A stretch of DNA of 64,000 nt from Oscillospiraceae bacterium (GTDB lineage: Bacteria > Bacillota > Clostridia > Saccharofermentanales > Saccharofermentanaceae): the NCBI GenBank assembly GCA_902764825.1, contig CACWXL010000017.1:18355-82354 (forward strand), given 5' to 3'. Made by a program: the position numbers and the translations under genes. This document shows positions 10,536 through 28,233 of the stretch, one piece after another. Position 1 is the first letter of the stretch; every line of letters starts with the position of its first letter. The notes beneath the pieces are model-generated. The model searched no databases. It worked only from the letters and a program-made list of their open reading frames with translations, and had not been told where the DNA came from.

Positions 10536-11786
10536 TTATACCCAGCTGAGGCGCCCTTCGAAGGCAACCTTTGGATCACCCGATCTTATCGTTCCAACCT
10601 CGCAGCAGTCATAGGTCTGATTAATGTGCTTCATAACAGAGGCCTTGTCTTTTTGCGAAGTCACGATCATGAATCCAACGCCGCAGTTAAAAGTCCTCAG
10701 CATCTCTTCATCGCTGATGCTGCCGTTGTCTCTTATAAACCTGAAGAGCTCCGGTATCCTGATCTTTGACAGATCGATCCTCGCACTCAGACCGTCAGGG
10801 ATTATACGGCAGAGATTTCCCTCTATACCGCCTCCGGTGATATGTGCCATTCCGTGTATGGAATTGCCGCCGAAAAGGTCTTTGACAGCCTTGTAGTAAG
10901 GCGTATGAGGCTTCATGATCTGCTCGATAAAAGTCATTCCGCCGACTATATCAGTCTTGATCTCCGGCTTTTTGTCCATGAGGAGCCTTACCAGCGAATA
11001 ACCGTTTGTATGAAGTCCGTTGGATGCGACAGCGAGTACCGCGTCGCCTTCTTTTATCGCAGAGCCGTCAATGATCTTCGATCTTTCGACTATGCCCGCA
11101 ATGCTTGATGAAAGGACATAGACTCCGTGGTCTACAACGAGAGGCTGGATAGAGGTCTCGCCGCCGACAAGAGAGCAGCAGTTGTCGCGGCATGCATCGG
11201 AGACGCCCTTGACCAGGGTCTTGATGGTGTCCTTCTCGGCATTTCCGCAGACGATGCAGTCCAGTACCGCCAGAGGCTTTGCGCCCATAACGATAATGTC
11301 ATTTACCAGGTGGTTTATCATGTCATGGCAGATGGATTCGGTATAGCCGTACTCCATGGCGAGCTTCTGCTTTGAGCCGGGTTCTTCAGTCTTTAAAACA
11401 AGGACCGGGTCTTTGATCTCAGGAAAATTGATGTCATACAGTGACGCGAAAGGCCCCAGACCGTTCAGTACACGGGGGTCTTTTGTCTCAAGGCTCTTCT
11501 CCATTTCCTTTTTGATCGAATCGGTATAGGCGATATCTATTCCGGCTTTGCTGTAGGAGAGTCCGCTTTCTTCCTTCTCGCTTCCTGCAAGGATCTCATC
11601 CACAGTCACTTCAAGTACAGATGCGAGCTCTTTAAGGATCTCGATGTTCGGAAATGTCACTCCGTTCTCCCACTTGGATATAGCCTGAAAGGAGACATTG
11701 AGTTTCTCTGAAAGTTGAGTCTGTGTAAGTCCCAGAGCCTTGCGCTTCTCTACGATAAAGCGCCCCATCTTCTTGCTGTCGATCAT
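10536..11786 (-). CDS. XRE-family HTH fused to a PurM (AIR synthetase)-like domain
   Basis: N-terminal ~68 aa is an XRE HTH (LTQTQLSEKLNVSFQAISKWENG); the rest has PurM motifs SYSKAGIDI, GGET, SNGLHTNGYS, HITGGG and TFNCGVG. Confidence 0.85.
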   Translation of the reverse strand: MIDSKKMGRFIVEKRKALGLTQTQLSEKLNVSFQAISKWENGVTFPNIEILKELASVLEVTVDEILAGSEKEESGLSYSKAGIDIAYTDSIKKEMEKSLETKDPRVLNGLGPFASLYDINFPEIKDPVLVLKTEEPGSKQKLAMEYGYTESICHDMINHLVNDIIVMGAKPLAVLDCIVCGNAEKDTIKTLVKGVSDACRDNCCSLVGGETSIQPLVVDHGVYVLSSSIAGIVERSKIIDGSAIKEGDAVLAVASNGLHTNGYSLVRLLMDKKPEIKTDIVGGMTFIEQIMKPHTPYYKAVKDLFGGNSIHGMAHITGGGIEGNLCRIIPDGLSARIDLSKIRIPELFRFIRDNGSISDEEMLRTFNCGVGFMIVTSQKDKASVMKHINQTYDCCEVGTIRSGDPKVAFEGRLSWV

Positions 11787-11917: not shown

Positions 11918-13300
11918 TTATTTCTTTTCGCCGGGCTGCTCCAGGCCTGAAGTGAGGAGCTTGACCGCGATCGCGCATTCTATCCTCTTCCTGAAGATAT
12001 CGCATCCCATCTCGTAGATGCCGTTGATGTCGCCTGAAGCGTGATAGGAATTTGCCGCACAACCGCCGGAGCAGTAGAGCTTTGCCCAGCAGTCCTTGCA
12101 TTCGGGACGGCTGTAAGCGTTGCAGCATGCGAACCTGTCGCGAAGTTCCGTGTTCTGAACGCCGTCGTAGATATTACCCATCTTGTATGCGTCGTCGCCG
12201 ACGAACTGGTGGCAGGGATAGAGGTCGCCCCACGGTGTGACGGCGAGATACTCTGTGCCGGAGCCGCAGCCTGCGATCCTCTTATAGATGCAGGGACCGC
12301 ATGTGAGGTCGAGCATATAGTGGTAGAAGGTAAAAGGTCTGCCTTCCTTAAAGCGCCGGACCATAAGTCTTGCGAGCTCTTCGTACTGCTCGAAAACTAT
12401 GGGCAGGTCTTCTTTGGTTATCGCAGAAGGGCTGGAAGGCTCTGTAACTACAGGTTCCATTGAGAGTTCAGTAAATCCCAGATCCAGCATCTGCTTTATG
12501 TCATTTACAAAGTCTGTGTTGAAGTGCGTGAAGGTGCCGCGCATGTAATAACTGCGGTTGCCGCGCTTTGCTACGAACTTCTGGAAGTTCGGAACGATCT
12601 TATCGTATGAACCGTGGCCTGCGTAGTCGACTCTGAAGCGGTCATTGACTTCCTTGCGGCCGTCCAGAGAGAGAACGACGTTATGCATTTCGCGGTTGGC
12701 GAACTCAGTGACCTCATCATCTAAGAGCATGCCGTTCGTCGTAAGCGTGAAACGGATATTCTTGTTGTGGATCCTCTCCTGTTCGCGGCCGTAAGCTACA
12801 AGCTGCTTTACGACGTCCCAGTTCATGAGAGGTTCGCCGCCGAAGAAGTCGATATCAAGGTTCTTGTGGAATCCTGAATTCTCGATGAGGAAATCGATAG
12901 CTCTCTTGCCGACCTCATAGCTCATTATCGCGCGCTCGCCGTGGTACTTGCCCTGGCTTGCAAAGCAGTAGGAGCAGTTGAGGTTGCATGTGTGGGCAAC
13001 GTGCAGGCACAAAGCCTTGACCTTGAAATTCTTTTTTCTGAAATCCTTGGCCAGGTGCTCGTATTTATCGGGAGCATAGAGTTTTCCGGCTGTCTTAAGA
13101 TCGTCAATGTCGGCGATGCATTCCTCAGCATCTTCTTTTGAGATGCCGTGCTTTTCGACCGCTTTGGCGACAACTGCATCAGCAGGCTCGTTCTCATACC
13201 ATTGGATCATGTCATAGGCGACCTCGTCGACCATGTGAATGGACCCGGAATAGCAGTCGAGCACGATGTTAAGACCTTCGAATTGATAACAGTGGATCAT
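11918..13300 (-). CDS. scfB: Thioether cross-link-forming SCIFF (ranthipeptide) radical SAM/SPASM maturase
   Basis: CNLNCSYC radical SAM motif, FFGGEPL, SPASM cysteines (GCGSG, YPCHQF, CKDCWAKLYCSGGC); adjacent to the six-Cys peptide gene. Confidence 0.93.
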   Translation of the reverse strand: MIHCYQFEGLNIVLDCYSGSIHMVDEVAYDMIQWYENEPADAVVAKAVEKHGISKEDAEECIADIDDLKTAGKLYAPDKYEHLAKDFRKKNFKVKALCLHVAHTCNLNCSYCFASQGKYHGERAIMSYEVGKRAIDFLIENSGFHKNLDIDFFGGEPLMNWDVVKQLVAYGREQERIHNKNIRFTLTTNGMLLDDEVTEFANREMHNVVLSLDGRKEVNDRFRVDYAGHGSYDKIVPNFQKFVAKRGNRSYYMRGTFTHFNTDFVNDIKQMLDLGFTELSMEPVVTEPSSPSAITKEDLPIVFEQYEELARLMVRRFKEGRPFTFYHYMLDLTCGPCIYKRIAGCGSGTEYLAVTPWGDLYPCHQFVGDDAYKMGNIYDGVQNTELRDRFACCNAYSRPECKDCWAKLYCSGGCAANSYHASGDINGIYEMGCDIFRKRIECAIAVKLLTSGLEQPGEKK

Positions 13301-13372: not shown

Positions 13373-13519
13373 TTACTTGTTGAGCTGCTCGCAAGGCTGG
13401 TTAGCAACACCGCAGGATGTCTTGCATGCAGACTGGCAAGATGTCTGGCACTCGCCGCATCCGCCTTCCTTAGCTGACTTCTCGAGATCTCTTGTCTCTA
13501 CTGTAACGATTCTTGTCAT
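13373..13519 (-). CDS. scfA: Six-cysteine ranthipeptide precursor (SCIFF), 48 aa
   Basis: MTRIVTVETRDLEKSAKEGGCGECQTSCQSACKTSCGVANQPCEQLNK matches the SCIFF pattern; GAGGGAG RBS precedes ATG at 13519. Confidence 0.95.
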   Translation of the reverse strand: MTRIVTVETRDLEKSAKEGGCGECQTSCQSACKTSCGVANQPCEQLNK

Positions 13520-13550
13520 AGTATTAATCTCCCTCTTTTTTAATACGTGA

Positions 13551-13579
13551 ATTATACTTTGATGACCTTTAACAGTCAA
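13551..13579 (-). promoter_or_regulatory. Sigma-A promoter of scfA
   Basis: TTGACT-17 bp-TATAAT on the minus strand; the -35 overlaps the decarboxylase stop codon. Confidence 0.75.
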
Positions 13580-15013: not shown

Positions 15014-15042
15014 TTGACAATTGAATTCTACACTTGTAGAAT
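15014..15042 (+). promoter_or_regulatory. Sigma-A promoter of blaI-like operon with overlapping BlaI-type operator
   Basis: TTGACA (15014)-17 bp-TAGAAT (15037); palindrome ATTCTACACTTGTAGAAT (15025-15042) contains TACA-N2-TGTA, the BlaI/MecI/CopY box. Confidence 0.85.
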
Positions 15043-15075
15043 GATGTCAAAATAATTATAAAGGGGATATATGCA

Positions 15076-15441
15076 ATGAAAGAGAATTCGATCGGTGACA
15101 GCGAGTATAAGCTAATGGAATTGATATGGGAATACGCTCCGGTAGCTTCCGGCGAGTTGTCCACCATGTGTGAGATGATCCACGGCTGGAAGAAGACCAC
15201 GGTCTATACAATGCTCAAAAGACTTCAGGACAAGGGATTCATACAGAGCGAGAAATCCACTATCACGTATCTGGTAGACCGTGACGAGCTTCAGAGACAG
15301 CAGAGCGAGGAACTCGTCGAGAAGAACTTCAAGGGATCCCTGCCGATGTTCGTCAACGCTTTCTTAGGCGGCGGTAAGAAGATGAGCAAGGAAGACGCCC
15401 AGAGTCTTATCGACATGATAGAACAGCACACGGAAGAATAA
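15076..15441 (+). CDS. BlaI/MecI/CopY family transcriptional repressor
   Basis: 121 aa; SEYKLMELIWE, WKKTTVYTMLKRLQDKGFI winged helix, FKGSLPMFVNAFL C-terminal motif. Confidence 0.92.
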   Translation: MKENSIGDSEYKLMELIWEYAPVASGELSTMCEMIHGWKKTTVYTMLKRLQDKGFIQSEKSTITYLVDRDELQRQQSEELVEKNFKGSLPMFVNAFLGGGKKMSKEDAQSLIDMIEQHTEE

Positions 15442-15466
15442 GGAACAAACCAAGGGATAGAGTGTT

Positions 15467-17986
15467 ATGAGTTTTATATTTTCCAAGGTGCTTGAGATGA
15501 GTTTGTACGGCAGTATTGCCATACTTGTCGTGTTGCTGTTCAGGCTAATTTTCCAAAAATGCCCCAAGAAAGTCATGATCCTTTTCTGGATCATTGTGGC
15601 ATTAAGGCTAGTGCTGCCTTTTAACTTCAATTCACCTACGAGCATTCTTAACTTCGGAAAGTTCGTTCAGCCGAAGACTGTGTCGGCAGAGCCCACAGTC
15701 TACGATCCCGAGACGAGATTAAGGGAGATCGCCGTAGTCGATAATACGCCTGTTGCTATAGAGCAGAATGATCCTGATGCTGCCGTAACCGGTAACAGCA
15801 ATGAGGCTCCGGATACCGCACCTGTGGTTACTGAACAGGCTCCCAAGGTAACGTTTAAGACGGTTCTGCCCTTTATCTGGCTTGGCGTAACGGCCGCCAT
15901 GCTGATCTTTTCAGCAATAAGATATGCGATCTTCTACTCAAGGGCCAGATGGAGTTCCCGTTCTTTCGACGGAAGATATTACATGGCAAATGACATCGAT
16001 TCACCGTTCGTTGTAGGCATCATCAAGCCTAAGATCTTTTTCCCGATCAACATGGATGACGATGAGCGCGAATATGTGCTCAATCACGAATGGACCCACA
16101 TAAAGAACAAGGACGGGCTTACCAAGCTTTTAAGCTACATCGTTCTCAGCATACACTGGTTTAATCCGCTTGTATGGCTTGCTTTCTTCATGCTCTGCGC
16201 AGATATCGAAATGCGTGTCGACGAGGAGACAACGAGCAATTTCAACCTCTCCATGGTAAAGGAATACTGCAAGTCGCTTGTAAGGCATGCGGCAGATGAC
16301 AATAAGGGCGCGTTTATGCAGAGCACTGCTTTCAGCGGCCTTTCTTTCGGAGGCATGGAGACCAAGATGAGGATCAAGAATCTTCTGTCACATAAGATCA
16401 CATCCAGAGAGATCCAGATCGCTTCCATTTGCGTTACCCTGGCCTTCTCGCTCCTGGTATCCGCATCTTCGATCGACCATCAGCCCTGGGTAAGGGAAAA
16501 GCCTTCTGAGCCAGAAGAGAGTGCTGTGGTTACAACATCTGATACTTTGGAATCTACGCCTTCTGAGACAACTGCTGAGACGACAAAGACCAGACGCTGG
16601 GATGCTGCATTTATTGATCCTTATATTGAACTCATCAGGAAGACCGGATATGACTATCAGGGCAATAAGCTTTATTACAAATATGCTTTCATCTACATCG
16701 ATGATGACCTGATCCCTGAGCTTGTTATGGAAAGACCGACAGAGGGTGCGAACGATCTGGTAAGTCTTTACACTTTCAGAAACGGTAAGGTTCTGCCTGT
16801 CTTTGAGGACGGCGTTTATATGGATTCGAGCGAGTCTTATCACTACGTTCCTTTTGAAGACTTTATTATTCATCATGTTGTATTGACCCAGGGTGAGCTC
16901 GCTGAAGCCAAGCTCTATTCCATGAATGATCTTATGACAGGTGCAAAGCCTAAAGCAGACGGCTATTTTGAGGGAACTTCGTTTTCAATAGACGGCAAGA
17001 GTGTCACGCAGGATGAATATAAAGAGTTTTTCAGAAGCCGCGAAGCCGAAGTGATAACCGGCAAAGTCGGTCCTGATAAGGCTATTGAGATCCTGAATGG
17101 CCAGAAGACTTCCGGCGGAACCAAGATCCCTTCTGACATTTCGGATGACCCGGCTGTTTCCGAGACAACAGAGACGACGGAAGAGACAACGGCTGCTACT
17201 GCTTCTGAGACCACAACACCTGTTGAGACAACGGTACCTGCAGAGGATAAGCTGCTTTCGATAAGCAAGATAAAGGATTTTACGGTCATTCCGTTTGTGA
17301 ACGAGAGCAACAATTCCACTTTTACTGTCTCAGGAGAATTTGGAAGTATCGTTTGCAGGATCCTCCCGGAGAAAGTGGTGCGCTTCACTATTAAGGACAA
17401 GTCATTTGAATATGCAATTCCTTCAACGAGCACCGGAGGAATCTACCTGCTGAAAGATTACGGAAAGGCGAACATCTTTATTCAGTTCTACGTTGAAGGC
17501 GGAAACCAGATCTGTGCATACAATGTCTTTGATAACGGTGTTTTCTTCAAAGGAGCGGTTAATAACGCCACATTCGAAAGAGCAGTCGATAATCCCAGAA
17601 CATTCTGGATCATTGAAAACTATGGGGAAAATGCGGTCGTTGATGTGAGGAGAAATTACTCGATGTCCAAAACAACAGGAATGCCGGCACCTGATACCTA
17701 CCTGATGTATACATGCTTCAACGTGAAGATGCCTTTAAAGAGCAAGGTTGATCTGTGCGGCTATCTGATGATAAACGGCACCATCTATAAACACAATTTA
17801 ATCTATATATATGTAGGTGAGAAAGTAACTCCGGTAAAAACAGATGAAAAAGACGTTATCATAATTCAAAAAGAAGACGGCACAGTGCTCCAGGTAAACT
17901 TCAAAGACCAGAAAGACAGATTCTACGACAGTAATAACTACCGCTGGGTCTACAATGCCATAGTGGACTGGTTCGAACCTGCATAA
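15467..17986 (+). CDS. M56 family (BlaR1/MecR1-type) membrane metalloprotease sensor with a large non-PBP extracellular region
   Basis: SPFVVGIIKPKI, HEWTH zinc motif, IHWFNPLVW, IEMRVDE; followed by a TM helix and two ectodomains separated by Thr/Glu-rich linkers. Confidence 0.9.
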   Translation: MSFIFSKVLEMSLYGSIAILVVLLFRLIFQKCPKKVMILFWIIVALRLVLPFNFNSPTSILNFGKFVQPKTVSAEPTVYDPETRLREIAVVDNTPVAIEQNDPDAAVTGNSNEAPDTAPVVTEQAPKVTFKTVLPFIWLGVTAAMLIFSAIRYAIFYSRARWSSRSFDGRYYMANDIDSPFVVGIIKPKIFFPINMDDDEREYVLNHEWTHIKNKDGLTKLLSYIVLSIHWFNPLVWLAFFMLCADIEMRVDEETTSNFNLSMVKEYCKSLVRHAADDNKGAFMQSTAFSGLSFGGMETKMRIKNLLSHKITSREIQIASICVTLAFSLLVSASSIDHQPWVREKPSEPEESAVVTTSDTLESTPSETTAETTKTRRWDAAFIDPYIELIRKTGYDYQGNKLYYKYAFIYIDDDLIPELVMERPTEGANDLVSLYTFRNGKVLPVFEDGVYMDSSESYHYVPFEDFIIHHVVLTQGELAEAKLYSMNDLMTGAKPKADGYFEGTSFSIDGKSVTQDEYKEFFRSREAEVITGKVGPDKAIEILNGQKTSGGTKIPSDISDDPAVSETTETTEETTAATASETTTPVETTVPAEDKLLSISKIKDFTVIPFVNESNNSTFTVSGEFGSIVCRILPEKVVRFTIKDKSFEYAIPSTSTGGIYLLKDYGKANIFIQFYVEGGNQICAYNVFDNGVFFKGAVNNATFERAVDNPRTFWIIENYGENAVVDVRRNYSMSKTTGMPAPDTYLMYTCFNVKMPLKSKVDLCGYLMINGTIYKHNLIYIYVGEKVTPVKTDEKDVIIIQKEDGTVLQVNFKDQKDRFYDSNNYRWVYNAIVDWFEPA

Positions 17987-18014
17987 CCGGAACATAATGA
18001 TTTCAGTACTTTCA

Positions 18015-18038
18015 GGGGAGCTTTAAGCTCCCCTTTTT
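18015..18038 (+). terminator. Terminator after the M56 gene
   Basis: GGGGAGCT-TTA-AGCTCCCC-TTTTT. Confidence 0.8.
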
Positions 18039-18066
18039 CGCGCCCTGGAAAAGATTTCAAAAAATA

Positions 18067-18165
18067 TTCTACAAATGTAGAAAAAACTATTGACATCTGC
18101 TTTCTACAAATGTAGAATGACGCTCGTAAGGTTGTTCTACGTTTGTAGAATCTACGCTTGTAGAA
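18067..18165 (+). promoter_or_regulatory. Sigma-A promoter with four BlaI-type operator palindromes
   Basis: TTGACA (18090)-17 bp-TAGAAT (18113); boxes TTCTACAAATGTAGAA (18067, 18102), TTCTACGTTTGTAGAA (18135) and TCTACGCTTGTAGAA (18151). Confidence 0.88.
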
Positions 18166-18193
18166 CAGCTACTATTATTCGGAGGAAATAAAA

Positions 18194-20050
18194 ATGAAGT
18201 CTATAGTAAAACCTATTAAGAGAGGCAGAATTACAGGATCGGCACTTGCAACGGTTATCCTTACAGGCGCACTCGCAGTTACGGCATCCGGTTGCACGGC
18301 AGAGATCAAGATGGCAGACGGAACTCCTGTAGGAACAGTAGTGATCAATGACGAAGCGCTGGCTTCGGGTATATCGATCAATCAGCAGGGCGTAAATGCA
18401 GACGTAATTACAGATCCTGCTATCCAATTACCGGCTGATGATTTTGATACGGATATAACACCTTCAGTATCCGTACCTGAAGAGAGCAAGGAAACGGAAG
18501 AGCCCGAAGTTACCGAACCTACTGCAGCAGAGACAACAGCAGCTCCTACCAAGGCACCGGCGACAGCAACTCCCGTACCGGTAAACGACAGTAAGAAGAG
18601 GGACTTTTCGAAGATCAAGAACGGAACAGTAATTCATTTTGATATCAAGGACAACGTTAAAGAGTACAAGGTATCAGGTGATTACGGCGAAGTATCTTTC
18701 ACGGTAAACGCAGGCACGCTCCGCTATGAGACAGAAGGAAACAAGTTATGGCAGGTCAGTATCAGTTCAGAAAGAGTATCCTACGCATATCTGATCAAGG
18801 AAAACGACAAGACATATCTTTATGTAGATGTTGTACGCGGCAATAACAACAACGAAACAAATATATATGAGATAAAAGAGAACTCCATCTCATGCATGAC
18901 TGTCCTTACAAACTTCACGGTATCTCCTTCTATAGACAACACGAAGAATTTCAAGGGATACGATGCAGACGGCGCAATGTTCTGCAGCGAAAGACAGTTT
19001 AAGATCGGCAAAGACGGACTCCCCGTACCTGCAGACAATATGAGCTATATCGGATCTGTAAGGGTTGTCGCAGCCAGGGATCTGACAGGATATCTCGTAT
19101 CAAACGGTAAAAAGACAAATACCAAGATGACGATCAAGGCCGGTGAAAGTGTTACTCCCACATGGCTCAACGAAGTTGAATACATTGATCTCAAGGATGC
19201 CAATAAAAACACCATCAGAGTGGATTTCACTGATGAATGCTGCAAATACTACGATCAGAACAATTACCGCTGGATCTATACGGCTCTCCGCAGCATGTTA
19301 GTTGAAGTAAGCCAGTTTAAAGCTTCAGTTAATTACCTGTCTGAAGGTTATATTGAGAAGTTCAATGACGGCAGCAAATGCTTCTGGGCAGAAGGATGCT
19401 ATGGAAAATTGTGTGTCGAGACACTCGGCAATAACATGCTCAGGATCACAAACGGCAAAAAGAGCTATGATCTCAATATAAAGTACGGTGATTCCGGTTA
19501 TGCCTTGAGCAGCGCATATCTTTTCAAGCAAAACGGAAAAGCATATATCTATGTAACTACTGTCAGAAAACCCGGCAATGCCAGTGATCTTAACGTCTAC
19601 GAATTAACAGATGATTCAGTAAAGTATGTCGGTACTGTTGAGAATCTTCTTATAAGGAAATTAAAGGACACAAAGTCTTTCTCCTGCTATGAGGATTACG
19701 GAAATAATTATCCTTTCCTTATCACGAGAAACTATAAGGTCGCAAAGAACGGCCTTGCAATCCCTGCTGACAACTACAGTCAGTTTGAATGGTCAACGAC
19801 TTTCAGAGCAGCAAGAGACATGGAAGGTAAGATCGTAAGAGACGGAAAGGTCACAGATGAGACAAAGAAGATCAAGACTGACGATCTGATAACACCCGTA
19901 GCGGTCAATGAAGTCGAATACATCGATTTTAAGGATGCTTCAGGAGATATCATAAGAGTCGATTTTACAAACGAATGCTGCACCTACTACGATCAGAACG
20001 ATTACCGCTGGATACGCCCCGCGATCCTCAGCATGGTAAAGGATGTATAA
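18194..20050 (+). CDS. Putative lipoprotein with two tandem domains homologous to the M56 sensor C-terminal ectodomain
   Basis: GGAGG RBS; signal peptide with lipobox-like TASGC; Pro/Thr linker; two ~245-aa repeats ending ECC-x-YYDQN(N/D)YRWI. Confidence 0.85.
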   Translation: MKSIVKPIKRGRITGSALATVILTGALAVTASGCTAEIKMADGTPVGTVVINDEALASGISINQQGVNADVITDPAIQLPADDFDTDITPSVSVPEESKETEEPEVTEPTAAETTAAPTKAPATATPVPVNDSKKRDFSKIKNGTVIHFDIKDNVKEYKVSGDYGEVSFTVNAGTLRYETEGNKLWQVSISSERVSYAYLIKENDKTYLYVDVVRGNNNNETNIYEIKENSISCMTVLTNFTVSPSIDNTKNFKGYDADGAMFCSERQFKIGKDGLPVPADNMSYIGSVRVVAARDLTGYLVSNGKKTNTKMTIKAGESVTPTWLNEVEYIDLKDANKNTIRVDFTDECCKYYDQNNYRWIYTALRSMLVEVSQFKASVNYLSEGYIEKFNDGSKCFWAEGCYGKLCVETLGNNMLRITNGKKSYDLNIKYGDSGYALSSAYLFKQNGKAYIYVTTVRKPGNASDLNVYELTDDSVKYVGTVENLLIRKLKDTKSFSCYEDYGNNYPFLITRNYKVAKNGLAIPADNYSQFEWSTTFRAARDMEGKIVRDGKVTDETKKIKTDDLITPVAVNEVEYIDFKDASGDIIRVDFTNECCTYYDQNDYRWIRPAILSMVKDV

Positions 20051-20085: not shown

Positions 20086-20117
20086 GAAAACGGACTGTCG
20101 TATGACAGCCCGTTTTC
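20086..20117. terminator. Hairpin between convergent genes, probably a bidirectional terminator
   Basis: GAAAACGGACTGTC-GTAT-GACAGCCCGTTTTC. Confidence 0.65.
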
Positions 20118-20139: not shown

Positions 20140-20982
20140 TTAAGGATTGATTACTGTGAAGCTGTAACCTGATACAACATCGGAATCCTCATAGATCGTC
20201 TTCTGCATCTGAAGAGCAGTAGAGAGGAGGAGTGTATAAGGTGAGAGCTTGCCCTTAAGGAGCTCAACGTCTGAACCGTAGCTGATAGCCTGAGCTTCGT
20301 CGTCTGAAAGCAGCATGTACTGTGAAACGAGGAAGAGGGATCTTACGCCTACGTTCATGTGAACGAGCTTATTGTTGATTGAGTATGTCGGGTTGGAGCT
20401 TGAAGAAGCACCTGACAATCTGCTGCTGAAGGAAAGACCCAATGTGGTTGTGGCGCCAAGAGAGCTTGTCTCATCCTGGATGAAGAGAGGCTTGCCCTCG
20501 ATGCCGACCTTACCTACTTCGTGGAAGAGAGCGATGATGATAGCGGACTCTTCGTCGAGCTGGGGCATGATCGTATCCTTGATCCTTAAGAGCTGCTTAG
20601 CAACTGATACGCTTCTGATGAGGAGACCCTTCTCGCAAGCGAGGGAACCCTTAACTTCTGCAGGTGCTGTAAGCCAGGATGTTCTGTTCTCGAGGAAATC
20701 GATGAAGTGATCGAATTCGGTCTTTCTCTTAACGATAGCTGCCTTGAGCTGCTCATAAAGAGTATCAACGTTGTCCTTGTTTACTTCGATCATCGGCATA
20801 ATACCGGCAACCTTATCGGACTTGCCTGTAGCTGCAGCTGAAACAGCTGCTGCCTGAGGAGTAACTACAGCGGAATCGTTGCCGCCTGCACTCTCGTCTG
20901 CTGATGTGAATGTATACTTACACTTAGGGCATCTGATAGCCTGATTGGCAATGACCATACCGCAATCGGGACATTTCTTCAT
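20140..20982 (-). CDS. Zinc-ribbon plus degenerate HD-domain protein
   Basis: AGGAGG RBS; CPDCG...CPKC ribbon; HD-fold pattern FxDFLENRTSWLTAPA...ALFHEVGK...EAQAI with HD replaced by HE. Confidence 0.7.
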   Translation of the reverse strand: MKKCPDCGMVIANQAIRCPKCKYTFTSADESAGGNDSAVVTPQAAAVSAAATGKSDKVAGIMPMIEVNKDNVDTLYEQLKAAIVKRKTEFDHFIDFLENRTSWLTAPAEVKGSLACEKGLLIRSVSVAKQLLRIKDTIMPQLDEESAIIIALFHEVGKVGIEGKPLFIQDETSSLGATTTLGLSFSSRLSGASSSSNPTYSINNKLVHMNVGVRSLFLVSQYMLLSDDEAQAISYGSDVELLKGKLSPYTLLLSTALQMQKTIYEDSDVVSGYSFTVINP

Positions 20983-21302
20983 GTTGTGACCTCCTGTTTT
21001 GCGGCTCAAAAATTAAACCGCAAATATAATTTAAACCCATTTTACAACCTTATTTTTACATAATCAATAAGAAAACACTTTTATTAACTAGGTTTTATTG
21101 TTATTTTTACTAGCAAATTTTATTTATTTTTACCTAAAATAAAAGACACTGACGAGGGGGTGTCAGTGTCTTAAGGAGGGTGTTATGAAGTAAGGAACAA
21201 TTACTTTGAACAACCATATCTTACCACCCTCAATATTTACTTTAAGATTCAAAAAAGGCAAAATAGTGGCAAAGGATTAGGCAAACAGGGAGGATTTCCG
21301 GA

Positions 21303-26994: not shown

Positions 26995-28233
26995 CTATTT
27001 ATAGCACTGCTCGATATATTTCTGTGTATAGCTTCCGAGTGTAGCAATCGCTGTTCCTGCAGCTTCCGAAGAGGCTGCTTCAACATAGATTATGAGTGCG
27101 AACGGTTCCTTGTAATCTACTATCGCGCATTCCATATATGCCTTACGGTCGGTGTTGCGGCCGAGAACATGAAGGATCCTTGTGTCCTCAGGGAATGCGG
27201 CACTTAACGGCGATCCGACCTCATTTGCCGCCAGGTCATTTAACAGACGCTGGTTTACCTGAGGGTTGATCGTGAACGTGCGGTAGATATATGAAAGATA
27301 CTGGCCCATGTCATAGCATGAGATCGTTCCGGTTGTGCGGAATTCCTTGCCGCTGTAATCCTTATAGATAACCTTGTCATCAAATGAGATATAGCCGCTT
27401 ATCTTCTTGATCTCAGATAATGCTTCATCCATGCCGCCGAGATTATTGATCAGGAAATTCAGGGCGATGCTGTCGTTTTTCGCGATCGAATAATAAAGGA
27501 TCGTCCTCATATAGAACTGTTTGCCGTATGAGAATGTTTTGGCGATATAAGAGGAATTGCGTGACCCCTTGGAGCTTCCGTCATAGGTAACGACCTCGGA
27601 AAGGGGACCCGTTATGCCTGCGATCTTATCGTAATAAACAATGGCGGCCGGAATAGCCATGGCGCCGGAAGGGACGACCGGATCGAGTTCATCGACACCC
27701 AGACGTTCTCCGCTGGATAATGAGATGAACTCGTAGCAGATCCTTAGATTCGTATGGCTCCTCTGATAAGCCGTAACCTGTTCCTTGAGCTCATCGAGAT
27801 AAACGGCACGCTGCTGATATGAGGCGGTCTGGATCCCGATAGGCTTAAAACTGAAGTTTCTGTCCTCCATGAACGGGTCAGGTGAATTGTTCTGGCCGTT
27901 GTCCCTTTCAGGTGAAATGGTAGGCGTAGGCGTCGCAGCGAGCTCCGCATGAGGTACGGTGGTCGTTACGGTCGTCGTTACCTCAGTAGTCGTTTCCGTT
28001 GTTGTATGTACAGGCCTCTGGTATGCAGAATAAGCCGTGGTCGTGCTTGTTGCGGCACCGACAAGTCCGGGATACATCAGTCTGTAAGTATCCTGTGCTG
28101 ACGCGATCGAGCTTATGAAGACTACTACGAAAGTAATCGCAAGCAGGATCAGGACGATCACGAGCGTACGCTTTTTACGGGATGTCTTTATCCCTTCGGC
28201 TTTTTTCAGAAATGTCGGATTCGGCCTTTTCAT
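26995..28233 (-). CDS. Membrane-anchored serine-hydrolase (class A beta-lactamase-like) fold protein with degenerate active site
   Basis: N-terminal TM and Thr-rich linker; motif positions read PSGAMAIP (for SxxK), KNDSIA (for SDN) and LHVLG (for HKTG). Confidence 0.65.
   Translation of the reverse strand: MKRPNPTFLKKAEGIKTSRKKRTLVIVLILLAITFVVVFISSIASAQDTYRLMYPGLVGAATSTTTAYSAYQRPVHTTTETTTEVTTTVTTTVPHAELAATPTPTISPERDNGQNNSPDPFMEDRNFSFKPIGIQTASYQQRAVYLDELKEQVTAYQRSHTNLRICYEFISLSSGERLGVDELDPVVPSGAMAIPAAIVYYDKIAGITGPLSEVVTYDGSSKGSRNSSYIAKTFSYGKQFYMRTILYYSIAKNDSIALNFLINNLGGMDEALSEIKKISGYISFDDKVIYKDYSGKEFRTTGTISCYDMGQYLSYIYRTFTINPQVNQRLLNDLAANEVGSPLSAAFPEDTRILHVLGRNTDRKAYMECAIVDYKEPFALIIYVEAASSEAAGTAIATLGSYTQKYIEQCYK

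Follow-up and report, generated by a model that had tools for sequence, protein, structure and literature searches.

Positions 15014-20050 of a 64,000-nt stretch of a rumen/gut Clostridia contig, hereafter called the window, carry three genes on the forward strand. According to the list of open reading frames (ORFs), they encode a BlaI-like repressor, an M56-family sensor-protease and a lipoprotein. We read these genes as a BlaI/BlaR1-type regulated-proteolysis switch with a non-antibiotic sensor, in which the lipoprotein acts on the same class of ligand as the sensor, and we give this reading a probability of roughly 55%. Sensor and lipoprotein share a domain of ~240 aa, named X here; the sensor has one copy of it and the lipoprotein two. 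Sequence analysis and computation established the gene content and motifs, the operators, the homology and the fold class, and also the conservation, the domain exchange and the transcription in rumen samples, while the account of BlaI binding and cleavage, of inducibility, of the ligand and of binding by X is inferred.

The first gene (15076-15441, +) encodes a winged-helix repressor of the BlaI/MecI family with 121 aa. Its residues 6-117 match PF03965 with an E-value of 1.2e-22 (80.9 bits against a cut-off of 22.6), and MecI structures were recovered by PDB sequence search (E ~3e-7). The cleavage site of MecI/BlaI, in the dimerisation helix, is N101-F102 (PMC9834060). In the alignment, this bond of MecI falls on A98-F99 of the repressor, and N97 stands one residue before it. 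The M56 gene (15467-17986, +) starts 25 nt past the end of blaI, and the two genes form one operon with a hairpin terminator at its end. Its 839-aa product matches PF05569 at aa 7-305 (E 3.2e-39). The N-terminal module (aa 1-340; 15467-16486, +) was delimited by Pfam, BlaR1 alignment and hydrophobicity, and cryo-EM chains of S. aureus BlaR1 match its first ~335 residues (E 4e-6). Hydrophobic segments predict four transmembrane (TM) helices at aa 11-29, 36-54, 133-155 and 318-336, by which the BlaR1 topology is reproduced, and the extracellular loop at aa 55-130 is long and rich in P, T and E. The gluzincin motif HEWTH (aa 207-211) aligns with HEYAH of BlaR1. Autocleavage of BlaR1 takes place at S283-F284 (PMC9834060). 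The corresponding bond in the sequence alignment is S293-F294, and the string around it, AFSGL.FGGMETK, is nearly invariant among orthologues. Judged from these family matches and motifs, the two proteins are a repressor/protease pair of the BlaI/BlaR1 type, as an earlier note on this DNA had proposed from the letters alone, and their catalytic and autocleavage motifs are intact.

The locus has two promoters. That of the blaI-M56 operon (15014-15042, +) consists of a -35 box TTGACA (15014-15019) and a -10 box TAGAAT (15037-15042), and the operator TCTACACTTGTAGA at 15027-15040 overlaps the latter, which predicts autoregulation. The lipoprotein gene has a promoter/operator region of its own (18068-18164, +), in which the promoter occupies 18090-18118 (-35 TTGACA at 18090-18095, -10 TAGAAT at 18113-18118). 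Both promoters have the form TTGACA-17-TAGAAT, each with 11 of 12 positions matching. The earlier note had placed one palindrome over the -10 box of both promoters. This is correct, but the lipoprotein promoter has four operators, not one: a box upstream of the -35 (18068-18081), a box over the -10 (18103-18116) and two boxes in the 5′ untranslated region (5′UTR; 18136-18149 and 18151-18164), with start-to-start spacing of 35, 33 and 15 bp. The palindrome TCTACNNNTGTAGA occurs at five sites in the window, one at the blaI promoter and four at the lipoprotein promoter, and nowhere else. Even with one mismatch allowed, 0.83 sites are expected per strand-count, and the observed count was reached in none of 100 shuffles. 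Its core, TACAnnTGTA, is the classical dyad common to Bla/Mec operators and the cop box. The blaI-M56 operon ends in an intrinsic terminator at 18015-18039 (+), for which RNA folding gives GGGGAGCUU-UAA-AGCUCCCC followed by UUUUU (hairpin and U-run, -18.2 kcal/mol, z = -2.8), and the position of this terminator is conserved in related loci. ORFs, Pfam matches, promoter scan and hairpin folding all agree with the first description of the locus as a blaI/M56 operon, a terminator and a separately promoted lipoprotein gene.

A canonical function, that is, beta-lactam sensing and resistance by a proper BlaR1/MecR1 or a CopY-type copper switch, could be suspected from the family-level matches to BlaR1, MecR1 and CopY models and from the operator core shared with those systems. 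Moreover, a gene for a 412-aa protein of the Beta-lactamase2 family (PF13354, E 2e-14), syntenic in the related loci L001 and L005, lies 7 kb downstream at 26995-28233 (-). But in the sensor no PF00905/transpeptidase match was found by Pfam, and the NCBIfam blaR1 model matches the protease part alone (model positions 165-326), with 85 bits against a cut-off of 400. The repressor scores 49.5 bits with the CopY/TcrY model TIGR02698, of which the equivalog cut-off is 121.95. It also lacks the C-terminal CxCxxxxCxC metal site, its C-terminus ...KEDAQSLIDMIEQHTEE being free of Cys, and it is therefore not CopY. There is no box near the beta-lactamase-family gene, which was rejected as a regulon member for this reason, and the sensor ectodomain is all-beta with no PBP-like (penicillin-binding protein-like) structural match. 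These tests exclude canonical beta-lactam or copper sensing, which we regard as extremely improbable. Such a sensor is not exceptional, since ~94% of M56 proteins are without a penicillin-binding domain and ~6% of BlaR-like M56 sensors bind beta-lactams (PMC13492132).

Domain X in the sensor and the lipoprotein

Past its last TM helix, the sensor continues with an S/T/E/P-rich stalk, a middle domain of ~200 aa, a T/E-rich stalk and finally X (aa 596-839, ~244 aa; 17252-17983, +). The middle domain (aa ~366-565; 16562-17161, +), which the earlier note did not mention, is a second sensor ectodomain with no database match. It is present in most orthologues and also in a 701-aa sensor of locus L023, and it is absent from 692-aa sensors (P0116). 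The lipoprotein (618 aa; 18194-20050, +) matches neither Pfam nor NCBIfam. Alignment of homologues defines its N-terminal part (18194-18595, +), which is composed of a signal peptide with a hydrophobic core at aa 13-35, a lipobox and a linker. In the lipobox, ...LTGALAVTASG-C34 (TASG/C), G33 and C34 are invariant in 25 homologues, and lipidation is predicted. A conserved segment, CTAEIKMADGTP..., follows at aa 34-85, and a query with the lipoprotein N-terminus matches all lipoproteins of the regulon. After a T/E/P-rich linker (aa 85-133) come X repeat 1 (aa 135-372; 18596-19309, +) and X repeat 2 (aa 376-618 plus the stop codon; 19319-20050, +); all three X domains were delimited by BLASTP and AlphaFold2. 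In BLASTP, sensor aa ~590-839 align with lipoprotein aa 128-365 (28% identity, E 2e-22) and aa 397-612 (27%, E 3e-20), which bears out the claim that the lipoprotein is made of two tandem copies of the C-terminal ectodomain of the sensor.

AlphaFold2 modelled the sensor X with a pLDDT of 94.1 and a pTM of 0.86, and both lipoprotein repeats with pLDDT >90. In the model, X is all-beta, with ~20 beta-strands followed by two short C-terminal helices. No significant neighbour was found by Foldseek in PDB and BFVD. Only beta-propeller fragments appeared there (best E 0.03 with a single domain, TM <= 0.34), which are too weak to assign a known fold, and no match to a PBP or a beta-lactamase was obtained. 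Searches of X against Pfam, NCBIfam, PDB sequences, PADLOC and PHROGs also gave no match. On the basis of this confident all-beta model, X is certainly not a PBP/beta-lactamase fold. The earlier note stated that no SxxK motif is visible in this domain. An SxxK-like string, SKIK, does exist, but it lies in a domain that is all-beta and of a non-PBP fold. In addition to a single Arg, Asp and Trp, the positions conserved among 31 X domains are mostly Gly, aromatic or hydrophobic, and no catalytic residue set was seen among them. Because of this lack of a catalytic constellation in the conserved positions, we infer that X is a binding or scaffold module.

The family of X is larger than a simple search suggests. 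A word-index search with the sensor X alone returned 2 proteins, and the family surfaced by a query with the lipoprotein and an exhaustive profile search. The latter collected 394 representative clusters, in which single-X lipoproteins are found next to the clade of the window. At E 1e-8 to 1e-16, it also reached lipoproteins of 500-650 aa in which an X-like core lies C-terminal to PdaC(DUF4163) and DUF3298 modules. Proteins P0230, P0232, P0239, P0250, P0282, P0283 and P0300 are 500-880-aa lipoproteins with this composition. P0250 (locus L025) adjoins an SH3_3 protein and an amino-acid ABC transporter, not blaI-M56. The co-occurrence of PdaC/DUF3298 with X-like cores is an envelope association, not a function.

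Conservation and exchange of X modules

The search of genomes for blaI-M56-X loci with an X-related target, a check that the earlier note had proposed, found the arrangement conserved across the clade, in ~16 related loci of rumen/gut Oscillospiraceae. At the cluster level, at least 60 homologues of the lipoprotein were counted; none has a name or a Pfam domain, and those of full length have ~606-669 aa. Species-representative genomes that carry the lipoprotein are rumen/gut metagenome-assembled genomes (Ruminococcaceae bacterium RUGxxxx, Saccharofermentans sp., Clostridiales), where Saccharofermentans is placed in Oscillospiraceae, Clostridia. It is also carried by the cultured Ruminococcaceae bacterium AB4001. 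The window sequence is present in bovine gut metagenomes, and both the sensor and the lipoprotein gene are found on contigs of bovine rumen metatranscriptomes. The M56 orthologues in syntenic loci all end in X, including the 692-aa sensors without the middle domain, and thus X is the constant ectodomain of the orthologous group.

The operators are conserved together with the genes. In the ~16 loci (6-22 kb), the box is found only upstream of blaI (one copy, in every locus that includes blaI) and of X-lipoprotein genes (three to four copies with the same spacing of 35/33/15 bp). The blaI promoter and operator are conserved in L003 and L005, and the operator/promoter block is near-invariant in L001, L003 and L005 though the proteins are just 37-43% identical. 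In L014, a third gene encodes a single-X lipoprotein with its own four-box promoter. L019, of a more distant lineage, follows the same logic with blaI, M56-X, a gene for a 415-aa protein, two boxes and a single-X lipoprotein gene. The 415-aa protein, whose gene is co-transcribed with M56-X, has a weak Lectin_C match (20.8 bits). In L010 and L011, boxes precede an extra lipoprotein gene in front of the gene with two X domains (XX). This extra gene (L010 8688-9986, L011 8791-9972) lies between sensor and XX lipoprotein and encodes ~390-430 aa with no Pfam domain and no X. A relationship of its product ('DCGxDGIPELL') to the middle domain of the sensor ('IDDDLIPELV') was considered and dropped (BLASTP not significant, hhalign probability 3%). 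From the restriction of the boxes in the window and across the loci, the predicted regulon is the operon itself plus X lipoproteins, and the claim of a shared operator at the operon's own promoter and the lipoprotein promoter holds.

Two loci deviate from the pattern. L023 (540-12404) has two BlaI-M56 systems in tandem. In the first, a 1061-aa M56 protein with an SBP_bac_8 ectodomain is encoded at the head of an operon and followed by three lipoproteins, of which the last is a single-X one. In the second, the 701-aa M56 protein has the middle domain (E 2e-13) and a weak C-type-lectin-like region (PF00059, 17 bits, sub-threshold) without X, and is followed by two box-bearing single-X lipoproteins. 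In L020 (987-7929), the gene of a distant M56-X sensor and its blaI come directly after six tandem small ORFs with double-glycine (GG) leaders MF[KR]SLNEKELMMVNGG/FYYVP... and genes for a Peptidase_C39 ABC exporter and an AprE/HlyD-like protein. On this contig there is neither an X lipoprotein nor a TACAnnTGTA box. The locus may connect X sensors with secreted peptides. Judged from the architectures of L023 and L020, X is a recurrent input module, and X lipoproteins are a recurrent output, of a modular BlaIR family.

To follow the history of X, an identity matrix and a distance-based neighbour-joining tree with 300 bootstrap replicates were made from the 31 X domains. Sensor X domains are polyphyletic; their monophyly was recovered in 0 of 300 replicates. 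The single-X lipoprotein of L014 falls inside the main clade of sensors, with a support of 100% for the wider and 90% for the inner group. Sensor X domains of L003, L013 and L017, called type B (91%), group with lipoprotein repeat 2, to which they are 42% identical versus 24-29% to other sensors. These placements show at least two copying events of X between sensor and effector, one in either direction. Replacement is also seen between strains. The window and L003 are 95.8% identical in nucleotide (nt) sequence from the SCIFF region to sensor aa ~388. Over the middle and X domains, and in the lipoprotein body, no DNA similarity is detectable between the two, and over the promoter and the lipoprotein N-terminus the identity is 82%. 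Each of the two segments that encode ectodomains behaves as a replaceable cassette between conserved recombination anchors. The segment after the lipobox Cys (CTAEIKMADGTPVGTVVINDEALASGI..., window 18293-18450) keeps 82-85% nt identity where the protein body shows none, and a related motif, C-T-[AVI]-[EK]-[IVF]-x-D-x-G, heads other BlaI-box lipoproteins in L010, L011, L014, L019 and L023. Such conservation might reflect a recombination anchor or an element for docking or sorting. Taken together, the replacement of cassettes and the exchange of modules argue for a variable, fast-evolving partner that sensor and lipoprotein would share, and they suggest a general way in which such systems retarget.

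The exchange of modules also bears on another explanation, in which the lipoprotein X binds the sensor X in the same or a neighbouring cell and no foreign molecule is bound. The lipoprotein would then be a ligand or modulator of the sensor, and work as a brake by negative feedback, as a latch by positive feedback or as a strain-specific signal of contact or kinship. Such homotypic recognition would fit the interchangeability of X between the two proteins, the joint swap of both ectodomains between the window and L003, the similar length of the two stalks and the 42% identity of type-B sensor X to lipoprotein repeat 2. However, the identity of sensor X to lipoprotein X is only ~25% in the window, L005, L008, L010, L011 and L015, and in L023 a sensor without X drives X lipoproteins; this explanation is rather unlikely. 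Less likely still is a strain-specific matched receptor/effector cassette, in which polymorphic X domains recognise each other or a co-evolving external partner in contact-sensing or decoy-type defence that exploits BlaR1 chemistry. If this were true, a phage receptor-binding protein, a bacteriocin or a protozoal/host lytic protein would be a candidate partner, the M56 switch would turn surface recognition into rapid display of a two-X decoy/adhesion lipoprotein, and module shuffling would keep sensor and effector matched.

The proposed switch and related systems

In the reading that we prefer, a non-antibiotic sensor and a lipoprotein that act on one ligand class, BlaI dimers at rest would occupy, in their own operon, the single operator with a TACAnnTGTA core that covers the -10. 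They would also sit on the four phased operators of the lipoprotein gene, flanking its -35, masking its -10 and obstructing its 5′UTR, and this gene would be held tightly off. With four operators, repression of the lipoprotein would be tight and cooperative, and its release switch-like. The sensor, a four-TM M56 gluzincin, would show the middle domain and X on long T/E/P-rich stalks. Binding of an extracellular macromolecular cue to the ectodomain would shift the protease to the active state, and by analogy with BlaR1 the ligand might displace the extracellular loop. The gluzincin would cut BlaI near N97-A98-F99, and both promoters would fire. The sole output would be a membrane-anchored lipoprotein with two X domains on a similar stalk, and this protein would act stoichiometrically on the same ligand class by binding, shielding or sequestering it. 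Most plausibly, the lipoprotein binds the same class of extracellular macromolecule as the sensor. The circuit logic, from ligand to BlaI cleavage to derepression, is well supported at the level of sequence. The earlier proposal that bla circuit logic is combined with non-penicillin sensing finds its support in the repressor and protease motifs, the operators and the non-PBP ectodomain. Its further ideas, a role in defence and an induced protein that binds or destroys the ligand of the sensor, are hypothetical.

Several facts weigh against this reading. The sensor X and the lipoprotein X repeats of the window are just 24-26% identical, and therefore a shared ligand specificity is not implied. 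The repressor has N-A-F where MecI/BlaI has N-F. In the metatranscriptomes, the contigs of sensor and lipoprotein have similar depths, which show no on/off contrast and to which DNA may contribute; these are assembler contig depths, so that their use as a read-out of induction was dropped and they are taken for presence only. The X-less sensor of L023, which from its boxes would drive X lipoproteins, indicates that an effector copied from the sensor is frequent but not obligatory; this idea of the earlier note is common in the clade, yet not a rule. L020 has an M56-X sensor but lacks an X lipoprotein close to it. Finally, a 'rewired BlaIR' as such is not new. What is new is the X domain, the tandem-copy effector, the four-operator promoter, and the module shuffling with strain-level replacement.

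The closest models are the BlaI-BlaR1-BlaZ(BlaP) systems of S. aureus and B. licheniformis and MecI-MecR1-MecA. They share with the present locus a winged-helix repressor and a four-TM M56 gluzincin in an autoregulated operon, a dyad of TACA/TGTA that covers the -10, the HExxH and S-F motifs, and an effector gene with its own operator-bearing promoter. BlaR1 is known to cleave BlaI directly, and class D beta-lactamases are relatives of its sensor (PMC9834060). In contrast, the sensor here is composed of a middle domain and a new all-beta X and is not class-D-like, the lipoprotein effector looks non-enzymatic, there are four operators instead of two dyads, and the genes are co-directional instead of divergent. 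In C. difficile, BlaRI controls the class D enzyme BlaD and the lipoprotein BlaX (bioRxiv 10.1101/630020). There too, the effector is related to the sensor ectodomain and a lipoprotein is part of the output. In our locus, however, the domain has no relation to serine beta-lactamases, the effector carries it in tandem duplicate, and regulator and effector are adjacent. Another relative in logic is RsiV/sigma-V lysozyme sensing, also a regulated-proteolysis envelope sensor; the RsiV ectodomain is described as binding a foreign protein (PMC4183432). The distant X-like lipoproteins, with PdaC(DUF4163) and DUF3298 before an X-like core, have the architecture of the RsiV ectodomain, a link made by domain co-occurrence only. 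The proteins of the window are without PF13739 (PdaC) and PF11738 (DUF3298), and the classes of protease and regulator differ from those of RsiV.

A further relative, the non-canonical BlaIR system CenIR of C. difficile, strongly represses the adjacent downstream gene for the exported protein CDR_0474, and no inducer has been found (PMC13492132). It resembles our locus in having an M56 protein without a transpeptidase domain, a BlaI partner and an exported target downstream, for which repression would be expected here. However, the tail of CenR is short, largely unstructured and unrelated to the target, whereas the locus in the window has large folded ectodomains and a paralogous target; orthology is not expected. 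CenIR nevertheless points to another possible explanation, namely that the sensor reads an endogenous state of the wall or membrane and that the X lipoprotein is a structural or scaffolding component made on demand. BlaI regulons of C. thermocellum have ordered multi-site operators, and they are small, autoregulated and directed to hypothetical proteins (PMC8457756). The place of the locus among housekeeping genes, the fusion of distant X-like domains to PdaC/DUF3298 envelope modules and the presence of transcripts in situ are also in line with envelope homeostasis. On the other hand, replacement of ectodomains at ~96% flanking identity, together with repeated exchange, is more typical of surfaces that meet a variable external partner than of housekeeping parts of the envelope, and the four operators suggest that the gene is normally off. 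We consider homeostasis improbable, though as serious a rival as homotypic recognition.

For the study of M56 sensing beyond beta-lactams, this system is an unusually tractable handle, since its sensing module X is a large, confidently folded and undescribed domain. The regulated lipoprotein offers X in soluble form and twice, and could be used in structural work and as a bait with which to fish for ligands. A four-operator promoter sharply delimits the regulon, which is minimal, and a cultured relative, Ruminococcaceae bacterium AB4001 with locus L015, is available. Module exchange and cassette replacement mark this as a variable surface locus in abundant rumen Clostridia.

Neighbouring genes

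The gene order around the locus is conserved as SCIFF maturase, SCIFF, decarboxylase, blaI, M56, lipoprotein, 280-aa gene and HI0933. The SCIFF six-cysteine peptide gene (13373-13579, -; PF13165, E 1e-22) adjoins a gene for a radical-SAM/SPASM maturase (11918-13300, -), and in the rumen metatranscriptomes examined, contigs of the SCIFF region are of very high depth. Downstream, a 14-bp-stem hairpin at 20086-20117, called on the minus strand by the scan, lies between the lipoprotein gene and a convergent gene for a 289-aa protein (20140-21009, -), and is likely a terminator. The 289-aa gene is kept beside the lipoprotein gene in all loci. Its product has a zinc-ribbon-like motif CPDCG...CPKCK at the N-terminus and a weak PHROG match to a phage 'metal-dependent phosphohydrolase' (E 2e-7), without a Pfam match. 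No other gene of the region reaches its metatranscriptome contig depth, which in X25 is 690-990, while that of the lipoprotein gene is ~160. No PADLOC anti-phage model matched any of the four proteins searched, namely BlaI, the M56 protein, the lipoprotein and the 289-aa neighbour.

In some strains (L001 421-7795, L003 10056-17854, L017 2930-10944, and also L007 and L009), a sortase-pilus cluster of ~8 kb is inserted between the M56 gene, or the first XX lipoprotein gene, and the box-bearing XX lipoprotein gene; the window is without it. The cluster encodes an S26 signal peptidase, an FctA-like pilin of 1083 aa, an SpaA/LPXTG protein, two sortases and a CnaB protein, and BlaI boxes are absent from it. 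Regulation of the cluster by BlaI was considered and rejected, since no box lies upstream of it in L001, L003, L007 and L017 and a terminator follows the M56 gene of L017. The locus has the appearance of a hotspot of variable surface structures. Farther upstream in the window, a gene at 10536-11786 (-) encodes an unusual 416-aa fusion of an N-terminal Xre-type helix-turn-helix with AIR-synthase-related AIRS/AIRS_C domains.

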